A stretch of DNA of 64,000 nucleotides from Candidatus Moraniibacteriota bacterium (lineage in GTDB: Bacteria; Patescibacteriota; Minisyncoccia; Moranbacterales; UBA1568), in assembly GCA_016699875.1 (NCBI GenBank), contig CP064989.1, forward strand, positions 648,788 to 712,787, given 5' to 3'. Positions 1,453-47,652 of the stretch are shown one piece after another; within the stretch, counting starts at the first letter, position 1, and each line of letters begins with the position of its first letter. The position numbers were made by a program, and so were the translations under genes. Below the pieces are notes generated by a model. The model saw only the letters and a list, made by a program, of their open reading frames with translations. It was not told the DNA's origin and made no database searches.

Positions 1453-1544
1453 AAGACCGTGCTTTTTAGGTGAAATACCTGAGCAGCAAGCGATGCGTTG
1501 GGTTGTATTCCGACTTTGCAACAAACCAAGAAGGAGTCAGTGAG

Positions 1545-1739: not shown

Positions 1740-1820
1740 AAATGACAGTCTATTCAATCTCGCCCAGTATTTTCGTTTGACGTTTTCCTCTTTGGCCGGT
1801 ACGGTTGAAGAGGAATTTTT

Positions 1821-2279
1821 ATGCCGATTTTTCACACACAATCAGCGGAAGAGTTGCGGAAACTAGGGGCGAGTTTTGCTCGGGGGATTTGTCCGGGAGT
1901 CGTCGCGCTTTCGGGCGAGCTCGGTGCGGGGAAGACGACGTTTTCGCAGGGGATTCTTGCGGAGATGGGCGCGACAGGACCCTTCACGAGTCCGACGTTC
2001 GTCATCATGAAGCAATATGACCTCGCGGTTCCTCTGGAGGGCATCGAGCGTATCTATCATGTGGACGCATATCGAATAGGCGAAGCGGATCTTCGTGCGC
2101 AGGGATTTGCCGAGTGGGCGAGTGATCCGAATGGTGTAGTATTGCTCGAGTGGCCGGAGCGCGTTCCGGGACTCGTGCCGGAAACCGCAACTCGCATTTC
2201 ATTTACCGTAGAGAAAACGGGAAGGAGAATAGAATGGCAAAAAAACGAAATGCAGGACAAAGGGCTCTTGGTTTCATAA
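1821..2279 (+). CDS. tsaE: tRNA threonylcarbamoyladenosine (t6A) biosynthesis protein TsaE (YjeE P-loop ATPase)
   Basis: 152 aa with Walker A SGELGAGKTTF, and a length typical of TsaE. Confidence 0.8.
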   Translation: MPIFHTQSAEELRKLGASFARGICPGVVALSGELGAGKTTFSQGILAEMGATGPFTSPTFVIMKQYDLAVPLEGIERIYHVDAYRIGEADLRAQGFAEWASDPNGVVLLEWPERVPGLVPETATRISFTVEKTGRRIEWQKNEMQDKGLLVS

Positions 2280-2500
2280 ACACAAAAGAAGCGCCGTCTC
2301 TGGCAGAGCCGGTTGATACTGAAGAAACGCCGCCTTCGGCAGAGTCGGTTGATATCGAAGAATTTCAATTTGGCAAAGGAAGCCTTGCAAAGACAGTGGA
2401 CTACGTCCTCCGCGAAGGAGACCCAAACTTTTTCGCGGGAGTTTATGATCATCTGGACAGAGAACCTGACTATACTATTGGATGCAACGGAAAATATTGA
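2234..2500 (+). CDS. hypothetical small protein
   Basis: ATG after GGAAGGAGAATAGA. Overlaps the tsaE 3' end by 46 nt. Followed by a terminator. Confidence 0.35.
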   Translation: MAKKRNAGQRALGFINTKEAPSLAEPVDTEETPPSAESVDIEEFQFGKGSLAKTVDYVLREGDPNFFAGVYDHLDREPDYTIGCNGKY

Positions 2501-2532
2501 AATCCAATCCCGACTCAAGAATTGCAGACATG

Positions 2533-2565
2533 CGCCCGGACCAAACAGGTTCCGGGTTTTTTCAT
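2533..2565 (+). terminator. rho-independent terminator (CCGGAcc..ggTTCCGG + T6)
   Basis: GC stem followed by TTTTTT, downstream of the 2500 stop. Confidence 0.55.
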
Positions 2566-2590
2566 TCATTTCATAAAAACGAAGTATTGA

Positions 2591-2622
2591 AAAAGGCTGC
2601 CAGGTAAGGGGCAGCCTTTTCT
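2591..2622. terminator. bidirectional hairpin terminator (aaaaGGCTGCCaggtaaggGGCAGCCtttt)
   Basis: Perfect 7-bp stem flanked by A-run and T-run. Sits between convergent genes. Confidence 0.5.
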
Positions 2623-2675
2623 AGAAAAATCATGGGTCGCGCGACGGCGTTGCGTGTGCGGTATCCGTGTTTCTT

Positions 2676-3041
2676 CTAGCGTGCGCCGAGAGTGACGCGG
2701 TCATCGGTCTCGGATTCGAGATATGCAACCTTGCCGGTATCGAGTATATCTTCCTCGATCCGAGAGGCTATCTCGAAGGCACCTTTGATGCCGTCGCTTC
2801 GATATTCCTTTCCGAGGAACTCTACCGTTGCGCCGGACACGAGTGCCCGCACCAGTTTCATGGAAAGCTCTTGGCTTTCCCAGAGGTTCCGCTCGTCATC
2901 CGTTGCGTCGGAATAGTCCGTCGTCCACGGATAGCGATAGCCGGCGACTCCGCACAAGATATCTTGCGGGGTCACGAGCCCGAACGGCGCCTCTACTACT
3001 TGCCCGGCATACGGCCCGGCAAGCAAGGAAACTCGTACCAT
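2676..3041 (-). CDS. hypothetical protein (MVRVSLLAGPYAGQ...)
   Basis: In-frame ATG at 3041 of the minus ORF 2676..3236. Choosing this start avoids overlap with the polA 5' region. No recognised domain. Confidence 0.35.
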   Translation of the reverse strand: MVRVSLLAGPYAGQVVEAPFGLVTPQDILCGVAGYRYPWTTDYSDATDDERNLWESQELSMKLVRALVSGATVEFLGKEYRSDGIKGAFEIASRIEEDILDTGKVAYLESETDDRVTLGAR

Positions 3042-3214
3042 AGGGGTACTTTTAATTATTAAGCTGCTCAGAGGAATCCCAAAGAACATCCTCTGAAGCG
3101 AACAGTATACCCCTTCCGAGTACTTTGTCAAGATTTGTAGACGAGGATTATCTCGGAGAATTTTCAGAGTATTTCCGACTTCCCAATGGCGGGGGAATGC
3201 GATATGCTTTCGGT

Positions 3215-5848
3215 ATGAAAGAGACGCTGCCAACACTCGTCATTCTCGATGGAAATGCGCTCATACATCGTGCGTATCATGCGCTCCCGCCTTTGACGTC
3301 GAAGTCGGGGGAACTGGTGAATGCGGTCTATGGTGTCGCGCTGACACTACTCTCCGTCTTGGAGAAATTCCATCCGGAATATATTGCGGCGTCGTTCGAT
3401 CTTGCCGGGCCGACTTTTCGGCATGAGAAATTTACCGAGTACAAAGCGACGCGCGTCAAAGCGCCGGACGAACTCTACGGACAGATTCCTCGTGTGAAGG
3501 AATTGGTGAGAGCCTTCAATATCCCGATCTATGAAAAAGAAGGATTCGAAGCGGACGATTGTGTGGGGACGCTCGCGCGGCAGGCAAAACAGCAGCGCCC
3601 GTTGGTTCGAACGATTATTGTGACAGGCGACAATGATGCTTTGCAACTGGTGTCTGACCGTGTGAGTGTTTTTGCGCTTCGAAAGGGAGTGAAAGACACG
3701 GTGCTGTATGATGAAACGGGCGTTGTGGCAAAGTATGGTTTTCAGCCGAAGACACTGATCGAATTCAAAGGACTTCGCGGCGATACGTCGGACAATATTC
3801 CCGGGGTGCGTGGCATCGGTGAAAAGGGAGCGACTGACCTCTTGAAGAAATATGGAACATTGGAGTCCGTTTATGAGCATCTCCGAGACCTTTCTCCTTC
3901 TTTGCGGGTGAAACTCGAGGCGGGGCGCGAGTCGGCATTTCTCTCGCGTGAGCTTGGTACGATCGATACCGATGCGCCGGTTTCACTTGATCTTGAATCG
4001 TGTCGTCTCCGCGACTTCGATCGGAAGGTGGTCGAAGGTTTTTTTCGAGAAATGGGATTTTTCAGTTTGGTGAAAAAAATTCCAGCAAGTGATTCCGGGT
4101 TATCAGATGATGGCGGAGAAAAATCAAAGGCGACTGGGAATGTTCTCACAAAGCGTAAGGATCAAGAACTTTTTTTTGAACAGTGCGCATCGGCTGATCG
4201 CATCGTGTTTCTGATACTGCCCGAGAAGGGAACGCTTTTTCAGACATCCGCATTTACTTGCGATATCGCTTTTTTCAAAGAACGCGAATCTGGGAGTGCA
4301 CGCATTGTTTTTGATGCCGACAACCGGAGATCTTTCAAACTGTTCTTCGAGAGCAATATTTTGAAAACAACCTATGACGCGAAGACGGCGATGAAGATGC
4401 TCGAGACGGTCGGAATAGAACTTCGCTCCATTGATTTTGACTGTCTCTTGGCGGGATATCTCTTGAATGCCGGTGGGACAGTGTCGCTCTCGGCGCTTAT
4501 GATGGAATATGTGGACAGTGCCGAGTCGTTCGATGCCGAATCCGCCATGCGGATTCAGGTACTTCAAGAGAAGCTCTCGGAGAAACTTCAAGAGATAGCG
4601 AAGGAGCAGGCATCCGGAAGAACGATTCTCGATATTTTCTCGAATGTGGAGATGCCGCTCATCGCTATACTTCGCGGGATGGAGCGAGCCGGCATTCGGC
4701 TGAACAGTTCCATTCTCATCTCGCTTTCGGAAGAAATGGAAAAAGAGATCGATGCCATTCAGAAAGAGATATTCGTGCTTGCCGGTCGGGAATTCAATGT
4801 TGGTTCGCCGAAGCAGCTCTCCGAAGTGTTGTTTGCTGAACTTGAGATCCCGACGGCAAATCTCAAACGGACAAAGACGGGCGTTTCAACTGCTTCCTCC
4901 GAACTTGAGAAACTGAAAGACGAGTATCCGATCGTTGCCTTGGTCGAGCAGTATCGCGAGCGGACAAAATTGAAGAGCACCTATCTTGATGTTTTGCCGC
5001 GGCTGGTGGACACGGAGAGCCGCGTGCATACGACCTTCGGGCAAGCGACGGCGGCAACGGGGCGGCTCTCGTCGACCGATCCGAATCTGCAAAACATTCC
5101 CATTCGAAGCGAGTGGGGCGAGCGGATTCGAAGCGCGTTTGTGGCGTCGCCGGGAAAGCTCTTGGTCGGGGCGGACTATTCCCAGATCGAACTTCGTGTG
5201 GCGGCGCATCTTTCGGATGATGCGGAGATGTGCGCGGCTTTTCGACGCGGAGAAGATATACACCGACGTACGGCATCGCTTGTTTACAATGCGCCTCCCG
5301 AAAGCGTGACGGATGACATGCGCCGCAAGGCGAAAGCGTTTAATTTCGGTATTATCTATGGAATGGGAGCCTATGGACTTTCGCAGTCTGCGGGCATGAC
5401 GCGGGATGAGGCGGGGAAATTCATCGAAGACTACCTCGAACACTTCTCGGGCATTCGCGCTTTTATGGATTCGATGAGAAAATTCGCACTGGAGAAAGGA
5501 TATGTCGAGACGGAATTAGGGAGGCGGAGATTTTTGCCTGAGATTGAAAGTGACAATCATCAGGTTGTCGCCTCAGCGGAACGCATGGCGATCAATATGC
5601 CGGTGCAGGGGCTTGAGGCGGATATCGTAAAACTCTCTATGATCGCGGTTGATTCGTTTATTCGCGAACGATTTTCTGGGAAGGCAACGCTTCTCCTGCA
5701 GATCCATGATGAGCTTATATTCGACGTTGAAGAATCCGTTGCGCCGGTTTTCGCTCACGAAATAAAAGGCGTGATGGAATCAGTCTACACGCTCCGTGTT
5801 CCGCTTGTGGTTGATGTATCGGTTGGGAAGAATTGGGGTGAGATATAG
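3215..5848 (+). CDS. polA: DNA polymerase I (5'-3' exonuclease plus polymerase domains)
   Basis: N-terminal LVILDGNALIHRAYHAL (5' nuclease), motif B RRKAKAFNFGIIYGMGAYGL, motif C LLQIHDELIFDV. In-frame alternative starts at 3125 and 3197. Confidence 0.9.
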   Translation: MKETLPTLVILDGNALIHRAYHALPPLTSKSGELVNAVYGVALTLLSVLEKFHPEYIAASFDLAGPTFRHEKFTEYKATRVKAPDELYGQIPRVKELVRAFNIPIYEKEGFEADDCVGTLARQAKQQRPLVRTIIVTGDNDALQLVSDRVSVFALRKGVKDTVLYDETGVVAKYGFQPKTLIEFKGLRGDTSDNIPGVRGIGEKGATDLLKKYGTLESVYEHLRDLSPSLRVKLEAGRESAFLSRELGTIDTDAPVSLDLESCRLRDFDRKVVEGFFREMGFFSLVKKIPASDSGLSDDGGEKSKATGNVLTKRKDQELFFEQCASADRIVFLILPEKGTLFQTSAFTCDIAFFKERESGSARIVFDADNRRSFKLFFESNILKTTYDAKTAMKMLETVGIELRSIDFDCLLAGYLLNAGGTVSLSALMMEYVDSAESFDAESAMRIQVLQEKLSEKLQEIAKEQASGRTILDIFSNVEMPLIAILRGMERAGIRLNSSILISLSEEMEKEIDAIQKEIFVLAGREFNVGSPKQLSEVLFAELEIPTANLKRTKTGVSTASSELEKLKDEYPIVALVEQYRERTKLKSTYLDVLPRLVDTESRVHTTFGQATAATGRLSSTDPNLQNIPIRSEWGERIRSAFVASPGKLLVGADYSQIELRVAAHLSDDAEMCAAFRRGEDIHRRTASLVYNAPPESVTDDMRRKAKAFNFGIIYGMGAYGLSQSAGMTRDEAGKFIEDYLEHFSGIRAFMDSMRKFALEKGYVETELGRRRFLPEIESDNHQVVASAERMAINMPVQGLEADIVKLSMIAVDSFIRERFSGKATLLLQIHDELIFDVEESVAPVFAHEIKGVMESVYTLRVPLVVDVSVGKNWGEI

Positions 5849-5854
5849 AGTGGT

Positions 5855-6073
5855 ATGAAAGTTTTCGTTGCTGTGAAAACAAATGTGAAGGCGGAGTATG
5901 TTGAGCGGATCGACGATGCGCATTTTCGCGTTGGCGTGAAGGCGGTTCCCGAAAAAGGAAAGGCGAATACAAGGATCGTGAGATTGCTTGCCGACTTTTT
6001 CAACGTGTCGCCGGCGAGGGTTGTCTTGCGTTCCGGCGGAGTGTCGCGGATGAAATGTTTCAACATCGAGTAG
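5855..6073 (+). CDS. DUF167/YggU-family small protein
   Basis: 72 aa, VKAVPEKGKANTRIVRLLADFFNV..VVLRSGGVSRMK, which is typical of the UPF0235/YggU pattern. Confidence 0.55.
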   Translation: MKVFVAVKTNVKAEYVERIDDAHFRVGVKAVPEKGKANTRIVRLLADFFNVSPARVVLRSGGVSRMKCFNIE

Positions 6074-6186
6074 AAAATGAGGTTATTGATTGTTTCTTTG
6101 GGAGTCTGTAGAGGGGGTGCGCGGTTTTTCCGCTTCTGATTTTATGATACAGTGAAGACGTTCTAACTTCTTCCATATATTTCTCT

Positions 6187-7371
6187 ATGTCTCTTGGAAA
6201 AAAACTAAGTGTGTTGGCAGTCATTGTGGCGATTGCAGCGGGTATCGCATATTATTTTGAGGTTTGGCCATTTGCTTCGCGCGAGCCGCGGCAGGCGATA
6301 GAAATCGAAAATGGGAAGTCGGTCATGAACGATGAACCGGAGCCAATGAAAAACACGGGACCGGTGAGTCCGATCACTGGTATCGCCTGCGAGCACTGGG
6401 ATCGTCGACCGGTTGCTGTGATGCAGCCGGCGGATGTATCGGCGCGCCCGGCAGCCGGATTCTCCAGTGCGGATATGGTGTTTGAAATGCCAGTTTTCAC
6501 GGGGGCGAATACACGTCTTATGGGAGTGTACCTCTGCGATATTCCAGAAGACATCGGTTCTATGCGAAGTGCGCGGCATGACTATTTGCCACTTGCCAAG
6601 AGTCTCGATGCTATCTTCGTGCATTGGGGGTATTCCAAATTCGCCGAAACGCTTCTCTCTCAGAAGGTGATAGACAATATCAATTGTTTGACCACATCGT
6701 TTTGTCCGCGGTGGACGCAGACCGGTATCATGAAATACGAGGATACGGGGCATATTACCCGGGACGCTATAGAGCAAGCGATTGCAAAGTATGGCTATCG
6801 AACGACCGGAGAGTTCTCGGGGTATCCACACCAGGAGGAGGCGCCATTTGAGAATCGTCCAACGGGCGGGCATTTGCGCCTTGCTTTCCCGAATCCGTAT
6901 GACGTTTCCTACGACTATGATCGTAGTACGAACTCGTATCTTCGCATTTGGGACAAATCGCCCGATACGGACAAGAATAACGGAGAGCGTATTGCGCCAA
7001 AGAATATCGCGGTTCTTATTGCTGAGTCGGAGCAAATAAAGCTTGCGACCGATTATGTTGCCCGCGGTGTTCAGAATCCATGGGATCTTGTGCCAAAAGA
7101 CGAACAAGACGGTCTCGACTATGGTGGTATTGGACGATACAACAACATTAACATGGGTGATCCGTGGTTTGATACCAAAGACAGCGGTGACGCATTCTAC
7201 TATTTCAATGGCAAGGAGTATAAGGGGACGTGGAAGAAGGACAAGAAGAGTTTGGACAGTAAGCTGACCTTTCTCGATGAGTCCGGGAAAGAAGTTCTCT
7301 TTGTGCCCGGTCAGATATGGGTGGATGTAATGGAGCCCGGGCAAGGTATCAAATGGGAACCGGGTGTGTAG
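6187..7371 (+). CDS. membrane-anchored DUF3048-like (YerB-like) secreted protein
   Basis: N-terminal TM helix. PVSPITGI...RRPVAVM....GFSSADMVFEMPVFTGANTRLMGVY resembles the DUF3048 N-terminal domain. The antisense ORF 6205..7344 is treated as a shadow. Confidence 0.5.
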   Translation: MSLGKKLSVLAVIVAIAAGIAYYFEVWPFASREPRQAIEIENGKSVMNDEPEPMKNTGPVSPITGIACEHWDRRPVAVMQPADVSARPAAGFSSADMVFEMPVFTGANTRLMGVYLCDIPEDIGSMRSARHDYLPLAKSLDAIFVHWGYSKFAETLLSQKVIDNINCLTTSFCPRWTQTGIMKYEDTGHITRDAIEQAIAKYGYRTTGEFSGYPHQEEAPFENRPTGGHLRLAFPNPYDVSYDYDRSTNSYLRIWDKSPDTDKNNGERIAPKNIAVLIAESEQIKLATDYVARGVQNPWDLVPKDEQDGLDYGGIGRYNNINMGDPWFDTKDSGDAFYYFNGKEYKGTWKKDKKSLDSKLTFLDESGKEVLFVPGQIWVDVMEPGQGIKWEPGV

Positions 7372-7426
7372 AAAAATTCTGTCTCGTCATTCCCGCCCGT
7401 GCGGGGGTGATATATGTATGATCCTT

Positions 7427-8422
7427 TTCTTTTTCGGTGAGGATGCGTTTCGGTTGAAAGAGAAACGACTTGCTCTGAAAAATACGTTCTTTGAAAAAAA
7501 CCCGGGTTCGACGGGTTTTTTCGAATTTGATTTTTCCGATGGGGCGGAGGTAGGGGCTCTTGCCGAGTGTCTTTCGCAAAGGGGACTTTTTGTGTCCAAG
7601 AAATTCGTGATCGCGAGCGGTATCTTCGAGGCGCCGATTGAGATGCGACGCGAGCTCGCGGAATTTCTCGATGTGAATAGTACTGAGCTCTCCGCTGATG
7701 AAAATCGGATACTTCTTTTGTGTCAAAATGGCCAACCAAAGAAAGTGGAGAAGCTCTGGAAGACGCTCTCGAAGAAAGAGATAAAGACGCAGGAATTTGA
7801 AGCGCTTGGCGAGCCCATGTTGTTGCGTTGGTTGGATGAATCGGTGAAACGCGCCGGAGCAAGCGGTATGGAGCTTTCGGCGAAAAAAGCGCTCATTGAT
7901 ATTTGCCGGGAAGCGCCGAAACGTTCGGGAGGGAAACCGAATACGAATATGTTCCAGCTTGATACGGAAGTGAAGAAGCTCGCCGCATATCGGACGAAAG
8001 ACATGGTGCGAGAGGTTGATGTTCACGCACTCTCTCCAAAAGCGGCGAATGAAGAAACGGTTTTTCAGGCGCTTGATTTACTCTTCTCAGGGAAGAGAAG
8101 GGATGCGGCGTTGCTCTTTTCCAGGTTGGCAGAGGGAGGCGAATCGCTCGGGCTTCTCGGTATGTGCGCGTGGCAATTGCGCAATATTGTTCGCACGAAA
8201 GGTGCTCTTACGGACGGGCAGATTCGAAATGCTTCGGATACGGCAAAGCTTCTCGGTATGCACCCGTTTGCTGCGGGGAAATGTTTCCACATCGCCTCGC
8301 AATTCTCATTGAGCGCGCTTGAGAAATCATTTTCGCTCCTTGCGCGTCTGGATCGTGAGGCAAAGTCTGGCGATCGCGACCCGGAGGGAGCCTTGCTTGC
8401 TTTCGTGATGGGAATGCGATAA
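7427..8422 (+). CDS. holA: DNA polymerase III delta subunit (HolA-like)
   Basis: MILFFFGEDAFRLKEK.. matches the HolA N-terminal LYLLYGED motif, about 330 aa. Start after GGGGGTGATATATGT. Confidence 0.6.
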   Translation, partial: FFFGEDAFRLKEKRLALKNTFFEKNPGSTGFFEFDFSDGAEVGALAECLSQRGLFVSKKFVIASGIFEAPIEMRRELAEFLDVNSTELSADENRILLLCQNGQPKKVEKLWKTLSKKEIKTQEFEALGEPMLLRWLDESVKRAGASGMELSAKKALIDICREAPKRSGGKPNTNMFQLDTEVKKLAAYRTKDMVREVDVHALSPKAANEETVFQALDLLFSGKRRDAALLFSRLAEGGESLGLLGMCAWQLRNIVRTKGALTDGQIRNASDTAKLLGMHPFAAGKCFHIASQFSLSALEKSFSLLARLDREAKSGDRDPEGALLAFVMGMR

Positions 8423-8508
8423 ACGTGCATTTGCGTGCTAGTGTGGTGATGCGATAGAAGAATCTTTATCGGTCTCGTTTTAATCAGGAGAAACTTGTTA
8501 GGCAATTA

Positions 8509-9155
8509 GTGCATTTCGTAACCATTCGGATATACCATATCCTTATGGTAAAACGACAAGCAAACATTTTTAGTTGTGCAACCAATTTTGAGAGAGGGAG
8601 AAAGAGTGTTCCCTGTGGTTCTTTCAAACTGTCGAGAACTTGGAGAGGCTATGTGAAATGCGGACAGTGTTTGAGGCAGAAAAGCCTGCAGCGCTTGAAA
8701 TGGGAGATTGCGATCCTGAGAGGATTCTATTTGCAACAACCCGCGCACTGCCTGGCACATGACCTGGACGTGGAGTATCAGGGTATCACGCGCACCTATC
8801 AATGACTTCGAGAGATGCTCTATCATGTCGCTGAACTGGAAGGAGGTAGGCTGTCCGGGGAGATTGAAATGGACGAATCGTATTTCGGGGGCAGACGGAA
8901 GGGAAAACGAGGAAGATGCGCCAAGGTGAGAGTATCGTTTTCGGCCTCTTGGAGTGCGATGGACGAGTCTATACGAGGGTGGTGGAGCATGTGAGTGCCG
9001 AAGAGCTGATGGAAATCATCCGAAAGAGAACCAGAAAGGGATCAGTCTACTACACGGACACCTTCAATCGCTATAATTCCTTTACAATCACTCACCGGAA
9101 CAAGAATCTTTTCAAACCGTTTATTCGCGTCTATTTTGGTTATGTTTCGCACTAA
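8509..9155 (+). pseudogene. degraded IS1595/ISXO2-like transposase (split across two frames)
   Basis: One frame reads EMDESYFGGRRKGKRGR, the other VFGLLECDGRVYTRVVEHVSAEELMEIIRKRTRKGSVYYTDTFNRYNS. Together these form the ISXO2-like DDE domain. A zinc-ribbon-like N-terminus precedes them (VPCGS...YVKCGQC). Confidence 0.6.
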
Positions 9156-10633
9156 TTACCTTCTTTTGGGATCTTTTTTGAAGTTTTTAAATTGGCTATC
9201 TCATGGTACTCTGCATCGGAGTTGACGTTCCATTGGTCGTAATTTCCCTCACCGAGAATATTCTTTACGGCAAGGAAAGCGGTCATCATGGAATGATCTG
9301 AGTTGTTGTATTTATGAAGACCTCCTCTTCCAATCGGCTGGAGCGAATAGTCTTTAAATGTTGATAAGAGGCATCCCTTTATTTTCTCAACTTTTTCTTT
9401 GTACCCAAGCGTGTAGACAGGATATACGTTTTTCATCCGGATTACTTTTGCGTCAAACACGGATTTGGAATAGTCTCCGCAAAGTTTCTGTAAGTATGAC
9501 TTTGCTAAGTCAACCAAATCCTTATCGTTTGCTTTCCAAAGGGGGTCTCCCAGAGAACAGGTGAATTCGAATCCTACGCATGATGAATTCTTATTCGGAA
9601 CCATGAAGGGACTCCAATTGTGGAAGAATTGGACTCGAATGGATTGCATGCTCTCTTCGTGGGTGTATATCCACGTGTCTTGTAGCGGAATTCTTCCATC
9701 TATCATTAGGGAAACAGTGATGAAATCGCGAAAGGAAAGCTCATTTGCAGCGCAAAGAATATTCTGCGGCGGCGCAGGAGAAAGAGAGGTCACAAGTTCT
9801 TTGAGGGGCATGGTCGAAAGTACGAAGTCCGCAAGGAACTCTTTTCTCCCGGAAGGTGTTTGCGTAGAAATAGAAAGAATTTTTCCGTCTCGATGATGTA
9901 TTTGTGTGACAATGTGCTGTGTGAGTATATGTCCTCCGGAATTTTGAATTTTTTTTGCAACCGTTTCCCACATTTGTCCGGGACCATACTTTGGATATCT
10001 GAAGGTCTTGATAAGTGATTTTATGGAAGTATCTCCCGGTTTGAAGAGTTTCTTGAGCCGGTCTTTTAAGACGCTGAAAAAGGAAATCCCCCGTATTCTC
10101 TGGAAAGCGAAATCCTTGCTGAGTTTTGATGGGTGAATTCCCCAGAGTTTTCGGTTGTAATCGAGAAAGAATGGCTTTGCCAGGCGCGCTCCAAAGTTAT
10201 TGATACACCAATCGGCGAGCGTGTACCCCGGTCTTATTGGAAACAGTTTCGTTCGGATATAGCTCAAGAATATGTGAAGAGATTCCCTTACCCCAAAAGT
10301 TTTAAGAATGTCAATGAGTTGGATGGGATAATGAAAGAAATTTCCCCGGTAAAACCATCGGGAAAGGCGGGGACGATCAAGGAATTCATCTCCAAGCATT
10401 TTTTTCCACCACGCTTCTATGTCTTGGTTTTTGCTAAAGAAGCGATGTCCGCCAATATCAAAACGGAACCCATTGTGCCGGACGGTTCTCGAGATGCCAC
10501 CAATAACACGGTCCGATTCGAGGATAGTAACTTTGAATCCGCGCTGTGTGAGTTCGTATCCGGCAGTGAGTCCGGCCGGACCCGCACCTATAATAACTAC
10601 CTCTCTCTTTGGAGTCTCAGTTGATTTTTTCAT
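9152..10633 (-). CDS. FAD/NAD(P)-binding oxidoreductase (amine-oxidase / UDP-galactopyranose-mutase-like fold)
   Basis: N-terminal Rossmann [17 protein letters not shown]...[10 protein letters not shown]. 493 aa. Confidence 0.65.
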
Positions 10634-13039: not shown

Positions 13040-14209
13040 ATGATGAGAGAATCTGCAGGAAAGTTCTTTTCCATGTTGAACAGTCGCATGATATATCGCG
13101 TGCAGGCGGCGCATGTGATTCGGTCGGTAGCACTTTCGTTTGTAAGTGTGTACGTGCCGGCATTTCTTCTGACGAACGGGTATTCACTTCGCGAGACGAT
13201 TTTGTTCTTTGTTGTTTATCACGGAGTCGGGCTCATGGCTGTTTTCACTGTTGTGGTGCCGATGCTCCGAAGGTGGGGCATGGTGACGACGATTCGGTGG
13301 TACTACCCGTTACAGATGTTGTTTCTCGGGCTGTTGCTCTTTGGAAGTGGCGCGCATCTCTCCGTATGGACAGCGGCTATAGTGGGTGGTATTGCTAATA
13401 TGGTTTACTATGTGCCGCTCAATGTGTTGTTCATGCGGCATACGGATCGCGAGACCATCGCCAAAGATTTCTCAGTATTTTTTGCGCTCCCAACAATATT
13501 TGGTCTCGTGGGACCGCTTCTTGGGGCAGCTCTGGTTGTTTCCTTGGGATTCTGGGCAACGTTCATTGTTGCGTTTCTCGGTCTTCTTCTGTCGTCTCTT
13601 CCATTGCGGGCGCTTGAAAATGACGAACGAATCGATCTTCGTTTTTCTGAGACGTTGCCAATGCTTCGGCGTCGAAAATTCCTCTTTTTTCTCGAGGGAT
13701 TCGACAATATCGTGGAAGAATCGGAGTGGCTCTGGGGAATTATTGTGTACCTCCTTATTGGATCGCTTGCGACACCTGGTGTTGTGGGATCTCTCGAATC
13801 TCTCGGAGGCGCTCTGTTCACTATATTTGTCGGGCGGTATGTGAACAAGCAGAAAAGTACCATGGCTACTCTATTTGTAAGCATTATTTTCTTGGTGCTC
13901 GTGTGGTGTGCTCGGTTCTTTATCGGGACGCCGCTCCCGGCATATCTGATCACGGTCTCCTCATCGTTCATTATGACGCTCTTTTTGGTTTCATACTTTG
14001 CAATGATCTACCGGAAAGTGAAGGGAGATCAGGACACGGAGTTCATTATCTTGCGAGAGATTCCGACAGTGCTGGGAAGAATGGTTGTATTTGGTGTAGC
14101 AATACTTGTTGCCTCTGATATCGAGCGGTTCTTTTATCTTCCTATGGCTGCTATGGGAATCCTGCTTATCGCGATGGCTGCTATGCGCAAACAACTCGCA
14201 AGTGCGTGA
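13040..14209 (+). CDS. MFS-type transporter
   Basis: 389 aa with about 12 predicted TM helices. MFS-like topology and charge distribution. Confidence 0.65.
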   Translation: MMRESAGKFFSMLNSRMIYRVQAAHVIRSVALSFVSVYVPAFLLTNGYSLRETILFFVVYHGVGLMAVFTVVVPMLRRWGMVTTIRWYYPLQMLFLGLLLFGSGAHLSVWTAAIVGGIANMVYYVPLNVLFMRHTDRETIAKDFSVFFALPTIFGLVGPLLGAALVVSLGFWATFIVAFLGLLLSSLPLRALENDERIDLRFSETLPMLRRRKFLFFLEGFDNIVEESEWLWGIIVYLLIGSLATPGVVGSLESLGGALFTIFVGRYVNKQKSTMATLFVSIIFLVLVWCARFFIGTPLPAYLITVSSSFIMTLFLVSYFAMIYRKVKGDQDTEFIILREIPTVLGRMVVFGVAILVASDIERFFYLPMAAMGILLIAMAAMRKQLASA

Positions 14210-14244
14210 TGAATGAATCCTATTCACCGTAGTGTAAGAACAAA

Positions 14245-14281
14245 ACTCCCTCAGCCAAATGACCGGGGGAGTTTTAATAAC
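14245..14281. terminator. bidirectional terminator (AAAACTCCC...GGGAGTTTT)
   Basis: Hairpin between the convergent MFS gene and rpsT copy 1. Confidence 0.5.
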
Positions 14282-14310: not shown

Positions 14311-14583
14311 TTACTTTTCCAAAGCTGCTTTTTTCACGAGCGCGTTGAGGCGAGACTTTTTGCGCGCGGCGGTGTTTTTCTTGATGATATTCTTTTCACT
14401 TGCTTTGTCGAGGCTCTTGATAGCGAGTTTGAGCTCCTTTTGTGCGGTTTCGATGTCTTTCGCTTTGACCGCTTCGCGCGTCTTCTTGATGGCGCTCTTG
14501 AAAACACCCTTGGCGACTTTATTTCGCTCGGTCTTCTTGGCGGTGACGCGCATGTATTTCTTGGCGGAATCCTTAATCGGCAT
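14311..14583 (-). CDS. rpsT: 30S ribosomal protein S20, copy 1
   Basis: 90 aa, MPIKDSAKKYMRVTAKKTERNK...KNTAARKKSRLNALVKKAALEK. Typical S20 composition. Confidence 0.85.
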   Translation of the reverse strand: MPIKDSAKKYMRVTAKKTERNKVAKGVFKSAIKKTREAVKAKDIETAQKELKLAIKSLDKASEKNIIKKNTAARKKSRLNALVKKAALEK

Positions 14584-14787
14584 ATGCTTTCAAAAACAAA
14601 TTAGCATCCCCCATAGGGTGTGAATCGTTTTCCTTTTTTACCATGCGATTTGTTTTTTGGCAAGGGGAAGGCTTTTGTGATAGTGTAAAGACACTTTTGG
14701 ATGCATTATGATTGCTTTACTGGAAGGAAATGTTGTTGCTCTGCGTCATGATTCTGCGGTGGTGCAGACGGGGGGTGTGGGTTATAA
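14334..14787. repeat. direct repeat copy A (about 455 bp). Second copy at 20103..20557
   Basis: Near-identical sequence covering most of rpsT, its upstream region and the first 27 codons of ruvA. Confidence 0.9.
14708..14787 (+). pseudogene. ruvA 5' fragment (first 27 codons). Orphan copy inside repeat A
   Basis: ATGATTGCTTTACTGGAAGG... identical to the start of ruvA at 20476. Diverges after GGTTATAAGG. Confidence 0.6.
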
Positions 14788-14937
14788 GGGTTTGTTGGAA
14801 TGTATGAATTCTGCTAGTATTAACTTGTTGAGGATATGTGCACGTGAAGAAGAACAATTTAAGTGAGATGCAGAAACAAGGAAAGAAGTAGCTGCTAGGC
14901 TGAATAGGGATGTAAACTAAACCGTAATCTAAATCGT

Positions 14938-17900
14938 ATGCGTCAAGATGCTCTGTATGGAATTTGGAATGCACGAAGAGGAAAATCTGTTGCGTGGTGT
15001 TTTCGAATGGGAGTCTTGGTGCTTTCGTGTATTCTGGGGAATGTGATGAATGTTTATTCGGCGAAAGCCGATTTTTCTTTTGATGAAACCGTTATTGATA
15101 GCGATTTTGCAGGAGATGTAAAAGGAATTGGCGATGTAAACGGTGATGGATTTCCGGATGTGGTTATTGGCGGACTGCAAATGAATTGGTATGAGTACCC
15201 GTCATGGACAAAACACACCATTGCTTCAGCTGCTATTGAATTTACGACGGATATGCAACTGGCTGATATCGATGGTGATGGGGATCTTGACATTGTAACT
15301 GGCGATGGAAATGGAACGAATAATGTCATTTGGCTTGAAAACCCTCTTCCGTCCGGCGATCCAACTGCCACATGGACCGTTCATGTGGTTGGTGCACATG
15401 GCGATTGGATTCATGATGTTCAAGTAGCAGACATGGATCGTGATGGAAAACTTGATATTGTGACGAGAAAGACGTCCACTCGTATTTTTTTTCAAGACAC
15501 TCCAACTTTGTGGACCGAGCGGGACATTTCTTCGACAGTGGCTGATAGCGGTGAGGGTATGGGTTCGGGAGATGTTGATAATGATGGTGATATCGACCTT
15601 GTTGTAAATGGCGCGTGGGTGGAGACACCAACAGCAGCTCGGACGGGAACATTTGTAAAGCATACGATAGCATTCGGCTATGGCACGGAAGTGACAGGAG
15701 CGGTTGCGGATGTGAATGCCGATACGCGCCCGGATATTCTCATGATCAACCAGCATTCGCGCGGGAAGTTTGCTTGGTATGCGGGACCAATTGATCCGAT
15801 TTCGGGAACATGGACAGAGCATGTGATTGATTCCAATATGGGGAGTCATAAGCTCGAAGTGGGGGATATGGATGGTGATGGTGCTCTTGATGTGGTAACT
15901 GGCCTCGAACTTCAAGAGCTTTCCATATATGAAAGCGATGGTGGATCGGTACCGACATTTACGAAGACAATTCTTTCAACATCCGGTACACATAATCAAT
16001 GTATCGGCGATATCGGGAATGACGGCGATCTGGATATTTTCGGTGCAAATTATTTAGGACACCCGCCTGTTTCACTGTGGGAGAATCATGCTTCGGATCC
16101 GCTTCCTGTAAACCAATGGACCTATAAACAGATAACGGATGGACATAGTCAAACATTTGGACTGGGCTTTGGCGATATTGACGGTGATGGAAGGAGGGAT
16201 ATCATATCCGGACAATATTGGTATCGGAATCCAGGCGGAGATATGTTGGGTACGTGGACTCAGTCGATATCGCTGCCATCCGGAATGGAGGCGATATTGT
16301 TCGGGGATGTGGATGATGACTCGCTGTCTGATGTGATTGCTCAAAAAACGGAGGGATCTTCATTGGCACTCTATTGGCTGGAAGCAACGGATGCCTCGGC
16401 GTCATCGTGGAATAGCGTGTATATTGGTGATGCTCCCGCGGCGAGTCACGTCCTTGGCGCGCAAGGGTATCGTCTAGCTGATGTGCGAAGCGGTGGCAAA
16501 CCGGAGATAGTGGTTTCGAGCGGTGATGGCATTTGGTATTTTGAAGTGCCGGCAAACCCCGCTGTCGATTCGTGGACGAAGGTGCATGTGAGTAGTAATC
16601 CTTCCGATGAAGGATTCGGGGTAGCAGATATGGATGATGATGGCGATCTTGATATCGCTGCGGGAACGGGTGATACGAAACTGGTAGAGTGGTATCGGAA
16701 TCCGGGTGATGGCTCTGCGGACTGGCAGTCATTTACTATCGGGGATATGAATGAAGCAGTATATCCGGATCGATTTGCTGCTGTTGATCTGAACGGAGAT
16801 AATCGCCGGGACATTATTGGAACAGAAGAGAATGGTCTCGCATCTGGAGCGGAGACATTTTGGTGGGAAGCGCCGGTCGATCCTACATCACCGAATTGGA
16901 TACGGCATCTTATTGCAACACAAGGAAGTACGAACTCCATGGATGTGGATGACATTGACCAGGATGGCGATATGGATATTCTTCTTGGGGAACACAAGGG
17001 ATCTTTAACGACGAGCATTTGGCAAAATGACGGATCGGGGAATTTTACTGAGCAAGTTGTGGGCGCCGGAAAGGAATCGCATCTTGGTACGCGCGCAATT
17101 GACCTTGATGATGATGGTGATGCGGATATCGTAAGCATTGCCTATGATGCGCCGCAGTACATTCACCTCTGGCGAAATGATGCGATAGTGGCAGGGGGGA
17201 CCGCAGTATCCGACACCACTCCTCCCACGCTCTCCAATATCGCCTCTTCGAACATAACCGCAACCGGAGCAATCATAACCTGGACTACCAACGAACCTTC
17301 CGATTCTCAAGTCGAATACGGCACCACAATAAGCTATGGACAAAGCACGATACTCGATACTACTCTCGTGACCAATCATAGTGTCACTCTTTCCGGTCTT
17401 TCCGCAAATACAACGTACCACTATCGCGTGAAGTCAAAAGACGCTTCCGGAAACATGACAATGTCGGGAGATGAGGTGGTGGTGACGACTAATCAATCTC
17501 CGTCGCAGGCCGGACTTGTTGCGGCGTACAACTTTGATGAAGGGATTGGAACAACAGCGCAGGATGCGAGTGGCAATAGCATTACCGGCACATTGACCAA
17601 TGGTGTTTCTTGGACGACAAGTGGGAAAAACGGAAACGCACTTCAGTTTGACGGTGTTGATGATTTTGTAAATCTTGGGCATCCGAGCGCTTTGTCATTA
17701 TCAAACTTTACCTTTTCGGCCTGGGTGTATCCGGTGAGTCTTTCCGGCGATCGAGATATTATTACCAAGGTCAGTAGTTCGTCTTCGGAGTATCATTTCC
17801 AGGAGACTGGTGGTCAATTGCAAGTCGGATTTTCCAATGGATCCGGATCATGGTATTACCTCAATGCCTCTGCTCAATCTATGCCGCTTAATGCATGGAG

Positions 17901-19929
17901 TCACGTTGCTGCTCTGTTTGACGATACCGGGAATACGTTCTCTCTCTATGTCAATGGAAATGTAGTGGGAACGCAATCAGTATCGGCATCGATCCTTGCT
18001 GGAACGGATGATGTTCATATCGGTATGGGGTGGAGTGGGCAGTCATGGAACGGAAAAATTGACGATGTGCGTATTTACAATCGGGCGCTTTCGGGGAGTG
18101 AAATATCAAGCGATATGAATACGCCGGTTGGCGGAACGGTTGAAGATACGACACCGCCAATCCGTTCGAATGGAGCGCCAACCGGAACGCTTTCGGAGAC
18201 AACTACCGATGCGACCCTGAGTCTTTCAACAGATGAATCGGCGACCTGTAAGTACAGCACGGTTTCCGGAACATCATACGCCGCAATGATTGATACTTTC
18301 CAAACAACGGGGACAATCAACCATTCAACGGCCATTTCCGGACTGTCGAGCGGATCATATGTCTATTTTGTTCGATGTGAAGATGCGATCGGAAATCAGA
18401 ATACGGATGACTTTGCGATTGCATTTGATATCGCTGCTCCCGATACGGCCGATCCGACAGTAACGATAACAGCTCCGACGAATGGGGCGACTGTTACGGG
18501 AACGGTTTCTCTCTCAGTAAATGCCTCGGATGATCGCGGAGTGGATCATGTCAACTTTCTCGTCGATGAATCACTGAATGCAACCGATGTATCGAGTCCG
18601 TATTCGATATCGATTGATACAACATTGCTTGCCGATGGGCAGCATACGTTTTTGGCGCGAGCATTCGATGCTGCTCTCAATATGGCGGAAGACAATATAA
18701 CGGTGACAGTGGAAAACACTGATACGACAGTACCTAGTGTTCCTCAGAATCTTTCAGCGACAGCGGTCTCGACAATGAGTATCGACCTTGCTTGGTCGGC
18801 ATCGTCCGACAATATTGGTGTTGCCGGTTATAGAATTTTCCGCAATGGCAGCGAGATCGGAACAACGACGTCGTTGAGTGCGAGTGATACGGGTCTTGTT
18901 CCGGCAACACGGTACTCGTATGCAATCTCATCCTACGATGCGCAGGGAAACGAGTCGGCGCTTTCGAGTACCGTCTCGGTTACGACGCTCACTCCCGACA
19001 CCACTCCTCCCACGCTCTCCAATATCGCCTCTTCGAACATAACCGCAACCGGAGCAATCATAACCTGGACTACCAACGAACCTTCCGATTCTCAAGTCGA
19101 ATACGGCACCACAATAAGCTATGGACAAAGCACGATACTCGATACTACTCTCGTGACCAATCATAGTGTCACTCTTTCCGGTCTTTCCGCAAATACAACG
19201 TACCACTATCGTGTGAAGTCAAAAGACGCTTCCGGAAACATGACAATGTCGGGAGATGAGGTGGTGGTGACATCACTTGCTAATGATGTTCTGGCATACT
19301 GGAATTTTGATGAAACATCCGGTACAACAGCAGCGGATTCCTCAGGTCAGGGGAACGCGGCAACGCTGGTGAATGGTCCAACATGGGTGGCTGGGAAGTT
19401 TGGAAACAGTGTCAAATTGGATGGAAGCAATGACTATTTGAGCGCCGGCAATATCTCAGCGCTCAATAACGCTCAAGCAATTACTATTGTCGGGTGGTTC
19501 AAAGACAGTAATAAGAATGGAAATAGGGTTATCTTTGGGAAATCTGTTGATGCAACACACGACTTCAATGTGAATACGTATAGCGGAATCCTGTATTGGG
19601 AATTGGGGAATGGAAGTGATGTTGCGGCGGAATGGACCGGATACGCTTCTTCGGTAACGCAAAACCAATGGTATCATGCAGCCTTTGTTTTTGATGGGAC
19701 AGCTTCCGGAAATGCCAATCGGATGAAGGTGTATATAAATGGTGCAGGTCAATCGTTAAATTTCTATGGAACCGTCCCGAGTTCAACGGCAAACCTATCG
19801 AGTAGCATGCTTCGACTCGGTTCTGACACAGTTGTTCCCGGATACTGGAAGGGAGGTATGGATGAACTGCGCATATATAGTCGAGCACTGTCGGAGGGTG
19901 AGATTCAGACGCTTATGACGCAGAACTAA
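14938..19929 (+). CDS. giant secreted adhesin-like protein: FG-GAP/VCBS beta-propeller repeats, Fn3, LamG_3 (concanavalin-like), Ig-like, Fn3, Fn3, LamG_3
   Basis: 1663 aa. Signal-peptide-like MGVLVLSCILG (alternative start 15007). Repeated DxDGDGxxDIV motifs. TTPPTLSNIASSNIT...HYRVKSKDASGN is an Fn3 module present twice. KIDDVRIYNRALSGSEI and MDELRIYSRALSEGEI are LamG_3 hallmarks. Confidence 0.85.
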   Translation: MRQDALYGIWNARRGKSVAWCFRMGVLVLSCILGNVMNVYSAKADFSFDETVIDSDFAGDVKGIGDVNGDGFPDVVIGGLQMNWYEYPSWTKHTIASAAIEFTTDMQLADIDGDGDLDIVTGDGNGTNNVIWLENPLPSGDPTATWTVHVVGAHGDWIHDVQVADMDRDGKLDIVTRKTSTRIFFQDTPTLWTERDISSTVADSGEGMGSGDVDNDGDIDLVVNGAWVETPTAARTGTFVKHTIAFGYGTEVTGAVADVNADTRPDILMINQHSRGKFAWYAGPIDPISGTWTEHVIDSNMGSHKLEVGDMDGDGALDVVTGLELQELSIYESDGGSVPTFTKTILSTSGTHNQCIGDIGNDGDLDIFGANYLGHPPVSLWENHASDPLPVNQWTYKQITDGHSQTFGLGFGDIDGDGRRDIISGQYWYRNPGGDMLGTWTQSISLPSGMEAILFGDVDDDSLSDVIAQKTEGSSLALYWLEATDASASSWNSVYIGDAPAASHVLGAQGYRLADVRSGGKPEIVVSSGDGIWYFEVPANPAVDSWTKVHVSSNPSDEGFGVADMDDDGDLDIAAGTGDTKLVEWYRNPGDGSADWQSFTIGDMNEAVYPDRFAAVDLNGDNRRDIIGTEENGLASGAETFWWEAPVDPTSPNWIRHLIATQGSTNSMDVDDIDQDGDMDILLGEHKGSLTTSIWQNDGSGNFTEQVVGAGKESHLGTRAIDLDDDGDADIVSIAYDAPQYIHLWRNDAIVAGGTAVSDTTPPTLSNIASSNITATGAIITWTTNEPSDSQVEYGTTISYGQSTILDTTLVTNHSVTLSGLSANTTYHYRVKSKDASGNMTMSGDEVVVTTNQSPSQAGLVAAYNFDEGIGTTAQDASGNSITGTLTNGVSWTTSGKNGNALQFDGVDDFVNLGHPSALSLSNFTFSAWVYPVSLSGDRDIITKVSSSSSEYHFQETGGQLQVGFSNGSGSWYYLNASAQSMPLNAWSHVAALFDDTGNTFSLYVNGNVVGTQSVSASILAGTDDVHIGMGWSGQSWNGKIDDVRIYNRALSGSEISSDMNTPVGGTVEDTTPPIRSNGAPTGTLSETTTDATLSLSTDESATCKYSTVSGTSYAAMIDTFQTTGTINHSTAISGLSSGSYVYFVRCEDAIGNQNTDDFAIAFDIAAPDTADPTVTITAPTNGATVTGTVSLSVNASDDRGVDHVNFLVDESLNATDVSSPYSISIDTTLLADGQHTFLARAFDAALNMAEDNITVTVENTDTTVPSVPQNLSATAVSTMSIDLAWSASSDNIGVAGYRIFRNGSEIGTTTSLSASDTGLVPATRYSYAISSYDAQGNESALSSTVSVTTLTPDTTPPTLSNIASSNITATGAIITWTTNEPSDSQVEYGTTISYGQSTILDTTLVTNHSVTLSGLSANTTYHYRVKSKDASGNMTMSGDEVVVTSLANDVLAYWNFDETSGTTAADSSGQGNAATLVNGPTWVAGKFGNSVKLDGSNDYLSAGNISALNNAQAITIVGWFKDSNKNGNRVIFGKSVDATHDFNVNTYSGILYWELGNGSDVAAEWTGYASSVTQNQWYHAAFVFDGTASGNANRMKVYINGAGQSLNFYGTVPSSTANLSSSMLRLGSDTVVPGYWKGGMDELRIYSRALSEGEIQTLMTQN
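17210..17486 (+). repeat. intragenic 277-bp repeat (Fn3 module), copy 1. Copy 2 at 18996..19272
   Basis: Identical apart from one mismatch (cgcgtg vs cgtgtg). Confidence 0.9.
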
Positions 19930-20020
19930 TGTTCTGATGCATTAGTTCTCACTCAACGGTATAGAGCCTTCCCGGGAAGAAGTATACACACCGGAAAGCC
20001 GGGTATGTGCGAGTAAGTTT

Positions 20021-20058
20021 CAGGAAAAAGAGCCGTCGGTATGCCGACGGCTCTTTCT
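20021..20058. terminator. bidirectional terminator (aaaaaGAGCCGTCGGtatgCCGACGGCTCtttct)
   Basis: 10-bp perfect stem. The T-run lies on the minus strand downstream of rpsT copy 2. Confidence 0.55.
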
Positions 20059-20079
20059 GGTGTCTCCATGTGGGAATAG

Positions 20080-20352
20080 CTATTTCTCCATCACCGCCTT
20101 CTTCACGAGCGCGTTGAGGCGAGACTTTTTGCGCGCGGCGGTGTTTTTCTTGATGATATTCTTTTCACTTGCTTTGTCGAGGCTCTTGATAGCGAGTTTG
20201 AGCTCCTTTTGTGCGGTTTCGATGTCTTTCGCTTTGACCGCTTCGCGCGTCTTCTTGATGGCGCTCTTGAAAACACCCTTGGCGACTTTATTTCGCTCGG
20301 TCTTCTTGGCGGTGACGCGCATGTATTTCTTGGCGGAATCCTTAATCGGCAT
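20080..20352 (-). CDS. rpsT: 30S ribosomal protein S20, copy 2
   Basis: Identical to copy 1 except the last 5 residues (AVMEK vs AALEK). Confidence 0.85.
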   Translation of the reverse strand: MPIKDSAKKYMRVTAKKTERNKVAKGVFKSAIKKTREAVKAKDIETAQKELKLAIKSLDKASEKNIIKKNTAARKKSRLNALVKKAVMEK

Positions 20353-20557
20353 ATGCTTTCAAAAACAAATTAGCATCCCCATAGGGTGTGAATCGTTTTC
20401 CTTTTTTACCATGCGATTTGTTTTTTGGCAAGGGGAAGGCTTTTGTGATAGTGTAAAGACACTTTTGGATGCATTATGATTGCTTTACTGGAAGGAAATG
20501 TTGTTGCTCTGCGTCATGATTCTGCGGTGGTGCAGACGGGGGGTGTGGGTTATAAGG
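20103..20557. repeat. direct repeat copy B (about 455 bp)
   Basis: See 14334..14787. Confidence 0.9.
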
Positions 20558-21051
20558 TGTATCTTACGCCGTACGCATTGGGCAAGATTGCCGGAGTGGC
20601 GTCAGTTCGTCTGCATATATATACCAATGTCCGCGAAGACGCTATTACGCTCTACGGCTTTTTGGATGAAGGGGAGCTCGCGATGTTTGAGCTTCTCATA
20701 TCGGTGAATGGTGTCGGTCCCAAGATGGCGCTTGGGATTTTGTCGGTTGCCGAACCGGCGTCGATTCGGGCGGCGGTTGTCGGGAAAGATATCTCCATAT
20801 TGACAAGGATTTCCGGCATTGGAAAACGCACGGCAGAGCGCATCTTGCTCGACCTTGAGAATAAAGTGGGAACACTCACGGCAGAGGGGCTCAAAGGCGC
20901 GACGGAGGAGAGCGAAGTGATCGAGGCGCTTAATTCGATGGGCTATTCGCCGGGAGAGGTTCGAGAGGCGATGAAACTGATTGCTCCGGGAGCGACTCGT
21001 GTTGAAGAAAAAATCAGCGAACTCCTCAAGGTGCTTGGGAAAAAACGGTAG
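20476..21051 (+). CDS. ruvA: Holliday junction branch-migration complex subunit RuvA
   Basis: 191 aa. OB domain, HhH motifs (GIGKRTAERIL), C-terminal domain III. Confidence 0.85.
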   Translation: MIALLEGNVVALRHDSAVVQTGGVGYKVYLTPYALGKIAGVASVRLHIYTNVREDAITLYGFLDEGELAMFELLISVNGVGPKMALGILSVAEPASIRAAVVGKDISILTRISGIGKRTAERILLDLENKVGTLTAEGLKGATEESEVIEALNSMGYSPGEVREAMKLIAPGATRVEEKISELLKVLGKKR

Positions 21052-47647: not shown

Positions 47648-47652
47648 ATGAA

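Follow-up and report, generated by a model that had tools for sequence, protein, structure and literature searches.

A giant surface-protein gene between two copies of an rpsT–ruvA segment in a Moraniibacteriota genome: a candidate case of one-ended homologous integration

Homology-facilitated illegitimate recombination (HFIR), in which one end of an incoming DNA molecule is anchored by homology and the other is joined illegitimately, has been described in the naturally transformable bacteria Acinetobacter baylyi, Streptococcus pneumoniae, and Pseudomonas stutzeri (PMC3240628). In an Escherichia coli assay for HFIR, 56 of 60 recombinants carried a partial duplication of the homologous locus, not a deletion; the duplications measured 109–950 bp in 14 sequenced clones, and the authors' explanation was that a partly degraded molecule had recircularised and integrated through a single crossover (PMC3240628). 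Duplications produced during transformation of S. pneumoniae have been attributed to interchromatid integration (PMC3784515). Here we describe a locus that shares features with these systems. It lies in a 64,000-nt stretch of DNA (the window, to whose positions all coordinates refer unless another locus is named) from a Candidatus Moraniibacteriota bacterium (assembly GCA_016699875.1, contig CP064989.1, forward strand, positions 648,788 to 712,787). In this window, the gene for a 1663-aa surface protein is bracketed by two direct copies of a segment, R, that contains most of rpsT, the gene for ribosomal protein S20, and the beginning of ruvA. We consider it probable that DNA from a related bacterium was integrated by homology at one end, either in an HFIR-like manner or as a fragment that had recircularised and then underwent a single crossover. 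The best reading of the 456-bp target duplication is that it was a by-product of the capture of the foreign surface-protein gene.

The elements on which the description of the locus is based are as follows:

14333 to 14789, no strand: repeat copy R1 (457 nt), rpsT lacking the final 22 nt, the spacer with the divergent promoters, and codons 1–27 of ruvA
14790 to 20101, plus strand: the insert (5312 nt), consisting of a 148-nt leader, the surface-protein gene, terminator T2, and a putative donor-type rpsT 3' end; absent from nine relatives
14938 to 19929, plus strand: gene for a 1663-aa secreted protein with FG-GAP (VCBS) beta-propeller, Fn3, LamG, and Big_7 domains (QQS15375.1), the sole gene between the copies
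20102 to 20557, no strand: repeat copy R2 (456 nt), the second copy

A repeat search and pairwise alignment showed that R1 and R2 differed at one point only, where a run of five C residues (14612–14616) stood against a run of four (20381–20384) within the rpsT–ruvA intergenic spacer. Both copies comprised rpsT (minus strand) except for its last 22 nt, a 124-nt divergent spacer, and the first 27 codons of ruvA. An earlier reading of the DNA, made from the sequence alone, had reported this near-identical repeat, and the alignment confirmed it, with the limits given there (14334..14787 and 20103..20557) displaced by 1–2 nt. The same sequence-only reading had correctly placed an S20 gene, its upstream region, and 27 ruvA codons in each copy, the full ruvA in the distal copy only, and the FG-GAP/Fn3/LamG gene of 1663 aa between them. 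Apart from R and a 277-nt block within the surface-protein gene, no long near-perfect dispersed repeats were found in the 64-kb window. The 5.3-kb segment between the copies was single-copy in the window, with the exception of its internal Fn3 repeat, and the duplicated part was R alone.

The locus was compared with those of nine relatives, four of them GTDB species representatives (L001–L004) and five obtained via S20 homologues (L040, L041, L043, L045, and L046). In all nine related Moraniibacteriota loci, a single rpsT was positioned back to back with ruvA, and the insert was absent. The ruvA gene of the relatives, whose product was 70–86% identical to that of the window, was followed by FemAB-family, TrmB-family, and Mur-ligase genes. 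The gene order in L041–L044 was PMT_2 glycosyltransferase, a 389-aa gene, rpsT and ruvA, FemAB, and TrmB, which is the order of the window once 14790–20101 and one R are taken out. The left neighbour of rpsT in this layout is the following gene:

13040 to 14209, plus strand: 389-aa membrane protein gene, ancestrally the left neighbour of rpsT, with a weak MFS_1 match only

Orthologues of its product, 81–84% identical, adjoined rpsT in L040, L041, and L043. Since all nine relatives had a single rpsT–ruvA pair, and several of them the same order of flanking genes, the segment 14790–20101 is an insert. The insertion footprint proposed in the sequence-only reading was thus supported by nine relatives with rpsT directly beside ruvA, and the arrangement without the insert, which that reading had suggested looking for in related genomes, was recovered in nine loci. 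Judging by this gene order, the ancestral flanks are the sequence to the left of the proximal copy (the 389-aa gene and the terminator T1) and that to the right of the distal copy (ruvA, FemAB, TrmB, and Mur ligase).

The two rpsT genes and the hairpins that follow them differed in their 3' parts:

14241 to 14276, minus strand: T1, the terminator hairpin of the proximal rpsT, which also closes the 389-aa gene (−20.2 kcal/mol, z=−4.2); ancestral
14311 to 14583, minus strand: proximal rpsT (S20, 90 aa, C-terminus AALEK, QQS15373.1) with a resident-type 3' end
20025 to 20058, no strand: T2, a bidirectional terminator hairpin serving the distal rpsT as well as the surface-protein gene (−25.8 / −25.9 kcal/mol, with z near −7 for either strand)
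20080 to 20352, minus strand: distal rpsT (S20, 90 aa, C-terminus AVMEK, QQS15376.1), a putative mosaic gene
20080 to 20101, minus strand: putative donor-type 3' end of the distal rpsT (...AVMEK*), L040-like

The frame of the proximal gene was intact, and its product matched Pfam PF01649 (E=6e-22, residues 5–84). Both S20 proteins had a length of 90 aa, as in all relatives, and were identical except for two of the five final residues (AALEK vs. AVMEK); the earlier statement that they differ only in the last five residues therefore stands, its exact extent being two of the five. The presence of two S20 genes in the cell was likewise confirmed, both being complete and equipped with a separate promoter region and terminator hairpin. 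The C-terminus of the proximal S20 resembled those of the relatives (AALEK/AALGK/AASEK). The last 30 nt of the distal rpsT (20080–20109) matched L040 (CP064974) at 27/30 positions, the proximal copy at 21/30, and the other relatives at 19–22/30, and S20 proteins ending in AVLEK are known in the L040 clade (P0123, P0124, and P0127). The donor-type end reads ...GTGATGGAGAAATAG and is followed by T2. T1 aligned with the rpsT terminators of L001, L002, L003, and L041–L043; T2 was unrelated to T1 and to the rpsT terminators of the relatives. Because its 3' end is L040-like and T2 is unrelated to T1, the distal rpsT appears to be a mosaic, in which the 3' tip, together with T2, arrived with the insert from another lineage and the remainder is resident.

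To the left of R, the two copies continued in register for another 46 nt, of which 28 (about 61%) were identical (p about 1.5e-6), and their reading frames stopped at the same codon. The mismatches numbered 9/30 nt at the rpsT end vs. 0/455 in the adjacent repeat (Fisher p=4e-12), and the divergence was therefore not homogeneous. The sequence-only reading had taken the left edge of the repeat for the end-point of a duplication; this did not hold, as homology ran on past the edge (28/46) and the distal end was L040-like. The edge is more consistent with a recombination breakpoint between donor and resident rpsT. Since the insert carried its own rpsT fragment, the structure points to one-ended homologous integration of foreign DNA and not to a plain duplication. 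A fresh simple tandem duplication was ruled out, because only R was doubled and the left flank consisted of diverged homologous sequence.

The fact that the copies are homologous but diverged to the left of the repeat would also be expected if an older duplication or insertion had left diverged copies of rpsT and the truncated ruvA (ruvA'), and a recent gene-conversion tract of about 456 bp had then made them identical again. The left repeat edge would in that case be the end of the conversion tract, and the right edge the end of homology. Two modules within the surface-protein gene show that a similar process may have acted at this very locus:

17210 to 17486, plus strand: Fn3 repeat copy 1, 276/277 identical to copy 2
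18995 to 19271, plus strand: Fn3 repeat copy 2, 276/277 identical to copy 1

These Fn3 modules (Pur_ac_phosph_N-like) had sharp edges and a sole mismatch (17427/19212), and the LamG modules that follow them were diverged. The equivalent Fn3 modules of the homologues were about 80% alike at the same spacing of about 1.78 kb, so that the identity in the window looks like the result of intragenic gene conversion. For R, however, conversion requires more steps and would still need the same homologous and illegitimate junctions. In addition, none of the nine relatives has any part of the insertion, the non-functional ruvA' shows no decay whatsoever, and the tract would have had to stop exactly at the homology boundary. 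Thus, we regard a secondary conversion of older copies as improbable and one-ended integration as the preferred explanation.

The Pfam matches of the surface protein were FG-GAP, fn3, Laminin_G_3 (two LamG domains), and Big_7, and its hydrophobic N-terminal segment aligned with the signal peptides of the homologues P0001–P0003. The term "adhesin" is a label derived from these domains, and an adhesive role is putative. The GC content at third codon positions (GC3) of the gene was 0.44 vs. 0.50–0.58 in most neighbouring genes, with a moderate tetranucleotide deviation; such a composition, only mildly atypical, would fit a foreign origin without proving it. Neither the leader (14790–14937) nor the segment 3' of the gene matched any fetched locus, the rpsT end excepted. 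The best homologue of the protein was 60% identical (P0001, Moraniibacteriota CP064975), followed by two with 55% and 50% identity. Their genes were located in a variable array of LamG, polysaccharide-lyase-like, and AbiEii genes (L037), between nusG and rplK (L038), and among unrelated small genes (L039). The occurrence of homologues in unrelated contexts across other Patescibacteria suggests that the gene moves. An adjacent rpsT, as expected of the donor-type layout, was sought beside these three best homologues and was not found, and a scan of Joint Genome Institute (JGI) metagenomes with the surface protein returned one locus only, with 27% identity.

Two of the homologue loci had repeats of their own. 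In L038 (JGI Ga0268731_1000853, 1–10450), a 1918-aa homologue is located between nusG and rplK in the normally conserved secE-nusG-rplK cluster and is flanked by direct repeats of 82–85% identity (2586–2721 vs. 9712–9853), formed by the 3' ends of small paralogous genes. In the closed genome CP064975.1 (L037), the P0001 gene (10001–14875) also lies between direct repeats (8222–8521 and 18720–19019); these measure at least 300 nt, share 99% identity, and are separated by 10.5 kb. This region is an array of paralogous genes, many of which have a conserved C-terminal motif of the DTTPPAAPTGLGVQ* type (the DNA motif is present in 10–12 copies).

The left end of the insert adjoins a truncated second copy of ruvA, as seen from the following features:

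14708 to 14866, plus strand: ruvA' remnant, a 52-aa open reading frame (ORF; 27 RuvA codons and 25 unrelated codons) with no RuvA similarity past codon 27
14789 to 14790, no strand: J1, the left junction, from ruvA codon 27/28 to the insert, where identity falls abruptly from 100% to none
20476 to 21051, plus strand: intact ruvA (191 aa; RuvA_N, HHH_5, RuvA_C), with FemAB and TrmB-family genes downstream, an order found in every relative

When 14701–15000 was searched with RuvA by tblastn, only the 27 shared codons were returned and thus no residual ruvA to the right of J1. At the right junction, the sequence changed from donor type (L040-like) to resident rpsT at 20101/20102, a pattern that identifies this junction as a homologous exchange inside rpsT. 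The location of the right junction within gene homology is one of several observations that disagree with the delivery of the gene as cargo of a transposon, integrative element, or prophage remnant inserted by an enzyme of its own. No transposase or integrase was detected in 14790–20101, where the sole gene-sized ORF has surface-protein domains only. The insert ends showed no terminal inverted or direct repeat (no inverted repeat >7 nt), and a short target-site duplication was absent, the duplication being 456 bp and not 2–14 bp. Phage and plasmid collections contained no match to the insert. Rfam and tRNA scans revealed nothing near the locus, the only tRNA of the window being at 47573, and no attachment-site-like feature was found nearby. 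Although the homologues occur in differing genomic contexts and the 3' flank of rpsT is variable among the relatives, as might be expected of a mobile element, we consider such an element extremely unlikely. Because residual ruvA, terminal inverted repeats, an integrase or transposase, a nearby tRNA, and phage or plasmid similarity were all lacking, J1 is, as far as its sequence can tell, an illegitimate joint and not a mobile-element end.

The DNA just 3' of rpsT is a hot spot of gene content among the relatives. A holA-like gene is located directly 3' of rpsT in L003, L004, and L045; L001 has an extra 355-aa gene at this position, and in L002 an extra 376-aa gene is accompanied by 34 codons left over from the 389-aa gene. 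A spacer of 0.45–0.5 kb with a small Cys-rich ORF is present in L040 and L045, and the contig of L046 ends 156 nt past rpsT.

As R includes the divergent spacer, the promoter region of ruvA was also present in two copies:

14657 to 14684, plus strand: ruvA promoter-like site copy 1, TTGGCA-16-GATAGT with an upstream TG, facing ruvA' and the surface-protein gene
20425 to 20452, plus strand: ruvA promoter-like site copy 2, TTGGCA-16-GATAGT with an upstream TG, preceding the intact ruvA

The promoter-like −35 element overlaps a TTGCCAA/TTGGCAA block that was conserved in all relatives aligned. A scan revealed no terminator-like site from the copy-1 promoter-like site to the start of the surface-protein gene; the only such match (14604–14621, a hairpin and then GAATCGTTTT) lies upstream of that site and not between it and the gene. 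No promoter-like sites were found in the 148-nt leader. Since a promoter-like site is present upstream and no terminator-like site intervenes, the surface-protein gene is probably transcribed from the captured second copy of the ruvA promoter. The promoter-like sites of rpsT and ruvA are themselves arranged back to back (14640–14690 / 20408–20458), with overlapping −35 elements (TTGGCAA / TTGCCAA); the overlapping block is CTCTTGCCAAAAAACAA and was kept in all aligned relatives.

RuvA, S20, and the surface protein each indicate a Candidatus Moraniibacteriota origin, and both S20 variants and the surface protein were traced by exact sequence to one assembly with a contig of 1,088,644 nt. The source of the window is a metagenome-assembled genome, and co-existing strains or separate loci could in principle have been joined by the assembler via an rpsT–ruvA segment that is truly present in one copy. 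No independent assembly containing J1 was found in searchable collections: exact-protein look-ups with both S20 variants, P0121, and the 52-aa ORF that spans J1 gave no contig on record, and a 26-nt tag from the right end of R had no match in a scan of JGI metagenomes. Elsewhere in public data, the surface-protein gene was represented only by the Logan contig L048 (SRR11673978, 920 nt), probably from the same project as the window, which corresponded to 15433–16355 with 3 indels and 0 mismatches; this contig lies inside the gene and spans no junction. One of the indels could be judged: there, the window has an open frame and a canonical FG-GAP motif, and the error is thus in the Logan contig. 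However, J1 is a novel junction without a shared k-mer, which mis-joining in an assembly graph does not create, and the truncated ruvA' must physically exist for J1 to be assembled. Moreover, the copies differ by one indel and were therefore not generated from one collapsed consensus, and the source is a single 1.09-Mb contig with both outer flanks perfectly syntenic with the relatives. The accession series appears to be that of closed, Nanopore-based genomes of the Candidate Phyla Radiation (CPR). The link to a particular study is our inference: CP064974, CP064975, and CP064994 bear isolate names of a Danish activated-sludge study, in which genomes were assembled from Nanopore reads by CANU, Flye, or Unicycler, with Illumina reads used for polishing (PMC8012365). 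Such reads would span the 456-bp repeat and probably the whole 6.2-kb structure. If the window does come from that study, the lone homopolymer difference between R1 and R2 would be a typical residual Nanopore error. Taken together, these observations make an assembly artefact highly improbable.

One-ended integration could have proceeded as follows. In the ancestral locus, the 389-aa gene and rpsT would have converged, with ruvA diverging from rpsT and followed by FemAB and TrmB. The donor would have been a related Moraniibacteriota bacterium in which the giant FG-GAP/Fn3/LamG gene and rpsT converged. On its right, the incoming fragment would have recombined homologously in rpsT, switching from donor to resident sequence at 20101/20102, and the left end would have been joined illegitimately to ruvA codon 27/28 at J1 (14789/14790). 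Because the illegitimate joint lies 456 bp to the right of the homologous joint on the resident map, the resident segment would then stand on both sides of the insert. As in the product of a single crossover, the insert was bracketed by copies of one contiguous target segment that is single-copy in the relatives, and the outer flanks jointly rebuilt the uninterrupted layout of L041–L044. To the left of R, the proximal copy was of the resident type and the distal copy of the donor type (30–46 informative nt); R itself contained no differences between donor and recipient.

Three routes would lead to this structure: (i) a linear fragment that is homologous at one end closes into a circle, which then enters the chromosome by a single crossover; (ii) a single fragment bridges two sister chromosomes; or (iii) replication switches template, with a stalled fork copying donor DNA and returning by homology 456 bp behind the break. 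The data do not discriminate between these routes. Route (i) has a direct experimental precedent in the E. coli assay (PMC3240628), and interchromatid integration is documented for transformation in S. pneumoniae (PMC3784515). If a circle was the intermediate, the identity between R1 and R2 would imply that the donor matched the recipient across R or that conversion took place later. With the sister-chromosome or template-switch route, both copies of R would be resident, and their identity would follow automatically.

Several points weigh against one-ended integration or parts of it. If the donor was diverged, the repeats left by a Campbell crossover should be hybrids that differ from each other, so that a simple Campbell event would fit only with a donor identical across R or with subsequent conversion; classic HFIR, in turn, deletes recipient DNA rather than duplicating it. 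The composition of the insert is only mildly atypical, and the proposed foreign origin of the distal rpsT end draws on only 30–46 nt. No donor with the surface-protein gene beside rpsT was found in the homologue contexts, in the loci of the relatives, or in the JGI scan. Furthermore, the predicted use of the ruvA promoter derives from a consensus match alone, and the physical reality of both copies depends on one assembly.

After the insertion, rpsT and ruvA are both intact, and the genome has two S20 genes, whose promoter regions are identical and whose terminators are separate. RecA-type recombination between R1 and R2 would be predicted to delete the insert and restore the ancestral locus exactly, and unequal exchange between them could amplify it; instability of the locus is therefore plausible on the basis of its structure. 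A more far-reaching possibility, which we consider quite unlikely, is that the locus is a reversible cassette in an episymbiotic CPR bacterium, lost by RecA-dependent deletion and regained by transformation, so that cells of the population would differ in whether they have a host-contact protein driven by the captured ruvA promoter; the footprint would then also provide direct evidence of transformation-type one-ended capture in Patescibacteria.

The locus may be viewed as a natural example of how a CPR bacterium with a reduced genome gains a large surface protein without the machinery of a mobile element. Homology in a conserved housekeeping gene would serve as the anchor, and since the target is duplicated, no essential gene or promoter is lost. 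At this locus, population reads could reveal gain and loss of the gene, the capture of a promoter, and whether recombination or competence is active in Patescibacteria. The class of mechanism is well known, so that the case is a useful illustration and a new instance, not a new principle, and is of moderate interest for CPR biology.

Other parts of the window also had unusual features. A long (CCAACT/CCAACA)n run at 33647–33838 encodes a Pro-Thr linker in a 445-aa ORF (33236–34573), whose GC3 of 0.37 was the lowest among the genes checked. In the region 46000–55000, the strongest tetranucleotide deviation of the window lies beside its only tRNA gene (tRNA-Asn, 47573–47645). Three copies of a 64-nt motif consisting of a gene end and a terminator follow the tRNA gene (48519–48582, 53221–53284, and 54333–54396; 67–70% identical to the reference copy), and the region may be a small island of paralogous genes.

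Comparison of the locus with the described systems demonstrated likenesses and differences in each case. As in HFIR, one end would have been anchored by homology (in rpsT) and the other joined illegitimately (J1 in ruvA), and a foreign gene would have been captured from a relative. The second junction of HFIR events usually has a microhomology of 3–10 bp. Unlike in HFIR, which normally deletes the recipient DNA between the joints, the joints are here in reverse order, and 456 bp are duplicated. The recircularised-fragment case of E. coli shares with the locus the direct repeats that copy the target (109–950 bp there, 456 bp here), the one novel illegitimate joint within, and a mechanism for which a site-specific enzyme is not needed. 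However, the repeats described here are identical, and the 30–46 nt just outside one of them are of the donor type, which suggests either that the donor matched the recipient across R or that the crossover occurred at the very edge of R. Another difference from the E. coli assay is that the event would be a natural one in an uncultivated CPR bacterium, with an intermediate inferred from the sequence and not observed.

The merodiploids of S. pneumoniae resemble the locus in that one fragment pairs with two positions on sister chromosomes, and in that the duplication is bordered by recombined sequences and keeps intact the genes that would otherwise be disrupted. Their duplications span 100–900 kb, and both joints are homologous (IS-derived repeats), whereas the duplication in the window is 456 bp long and has one illegitimate joint. 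Finally, in comparison with RecA-dependent deletable and amplifiable units, deletion or amplification is here only predicted, but the 456-bp direct repeats, with an identity of about 99.8% and a distance of 5.8 kb, constitute a standard substrate for such recombination.

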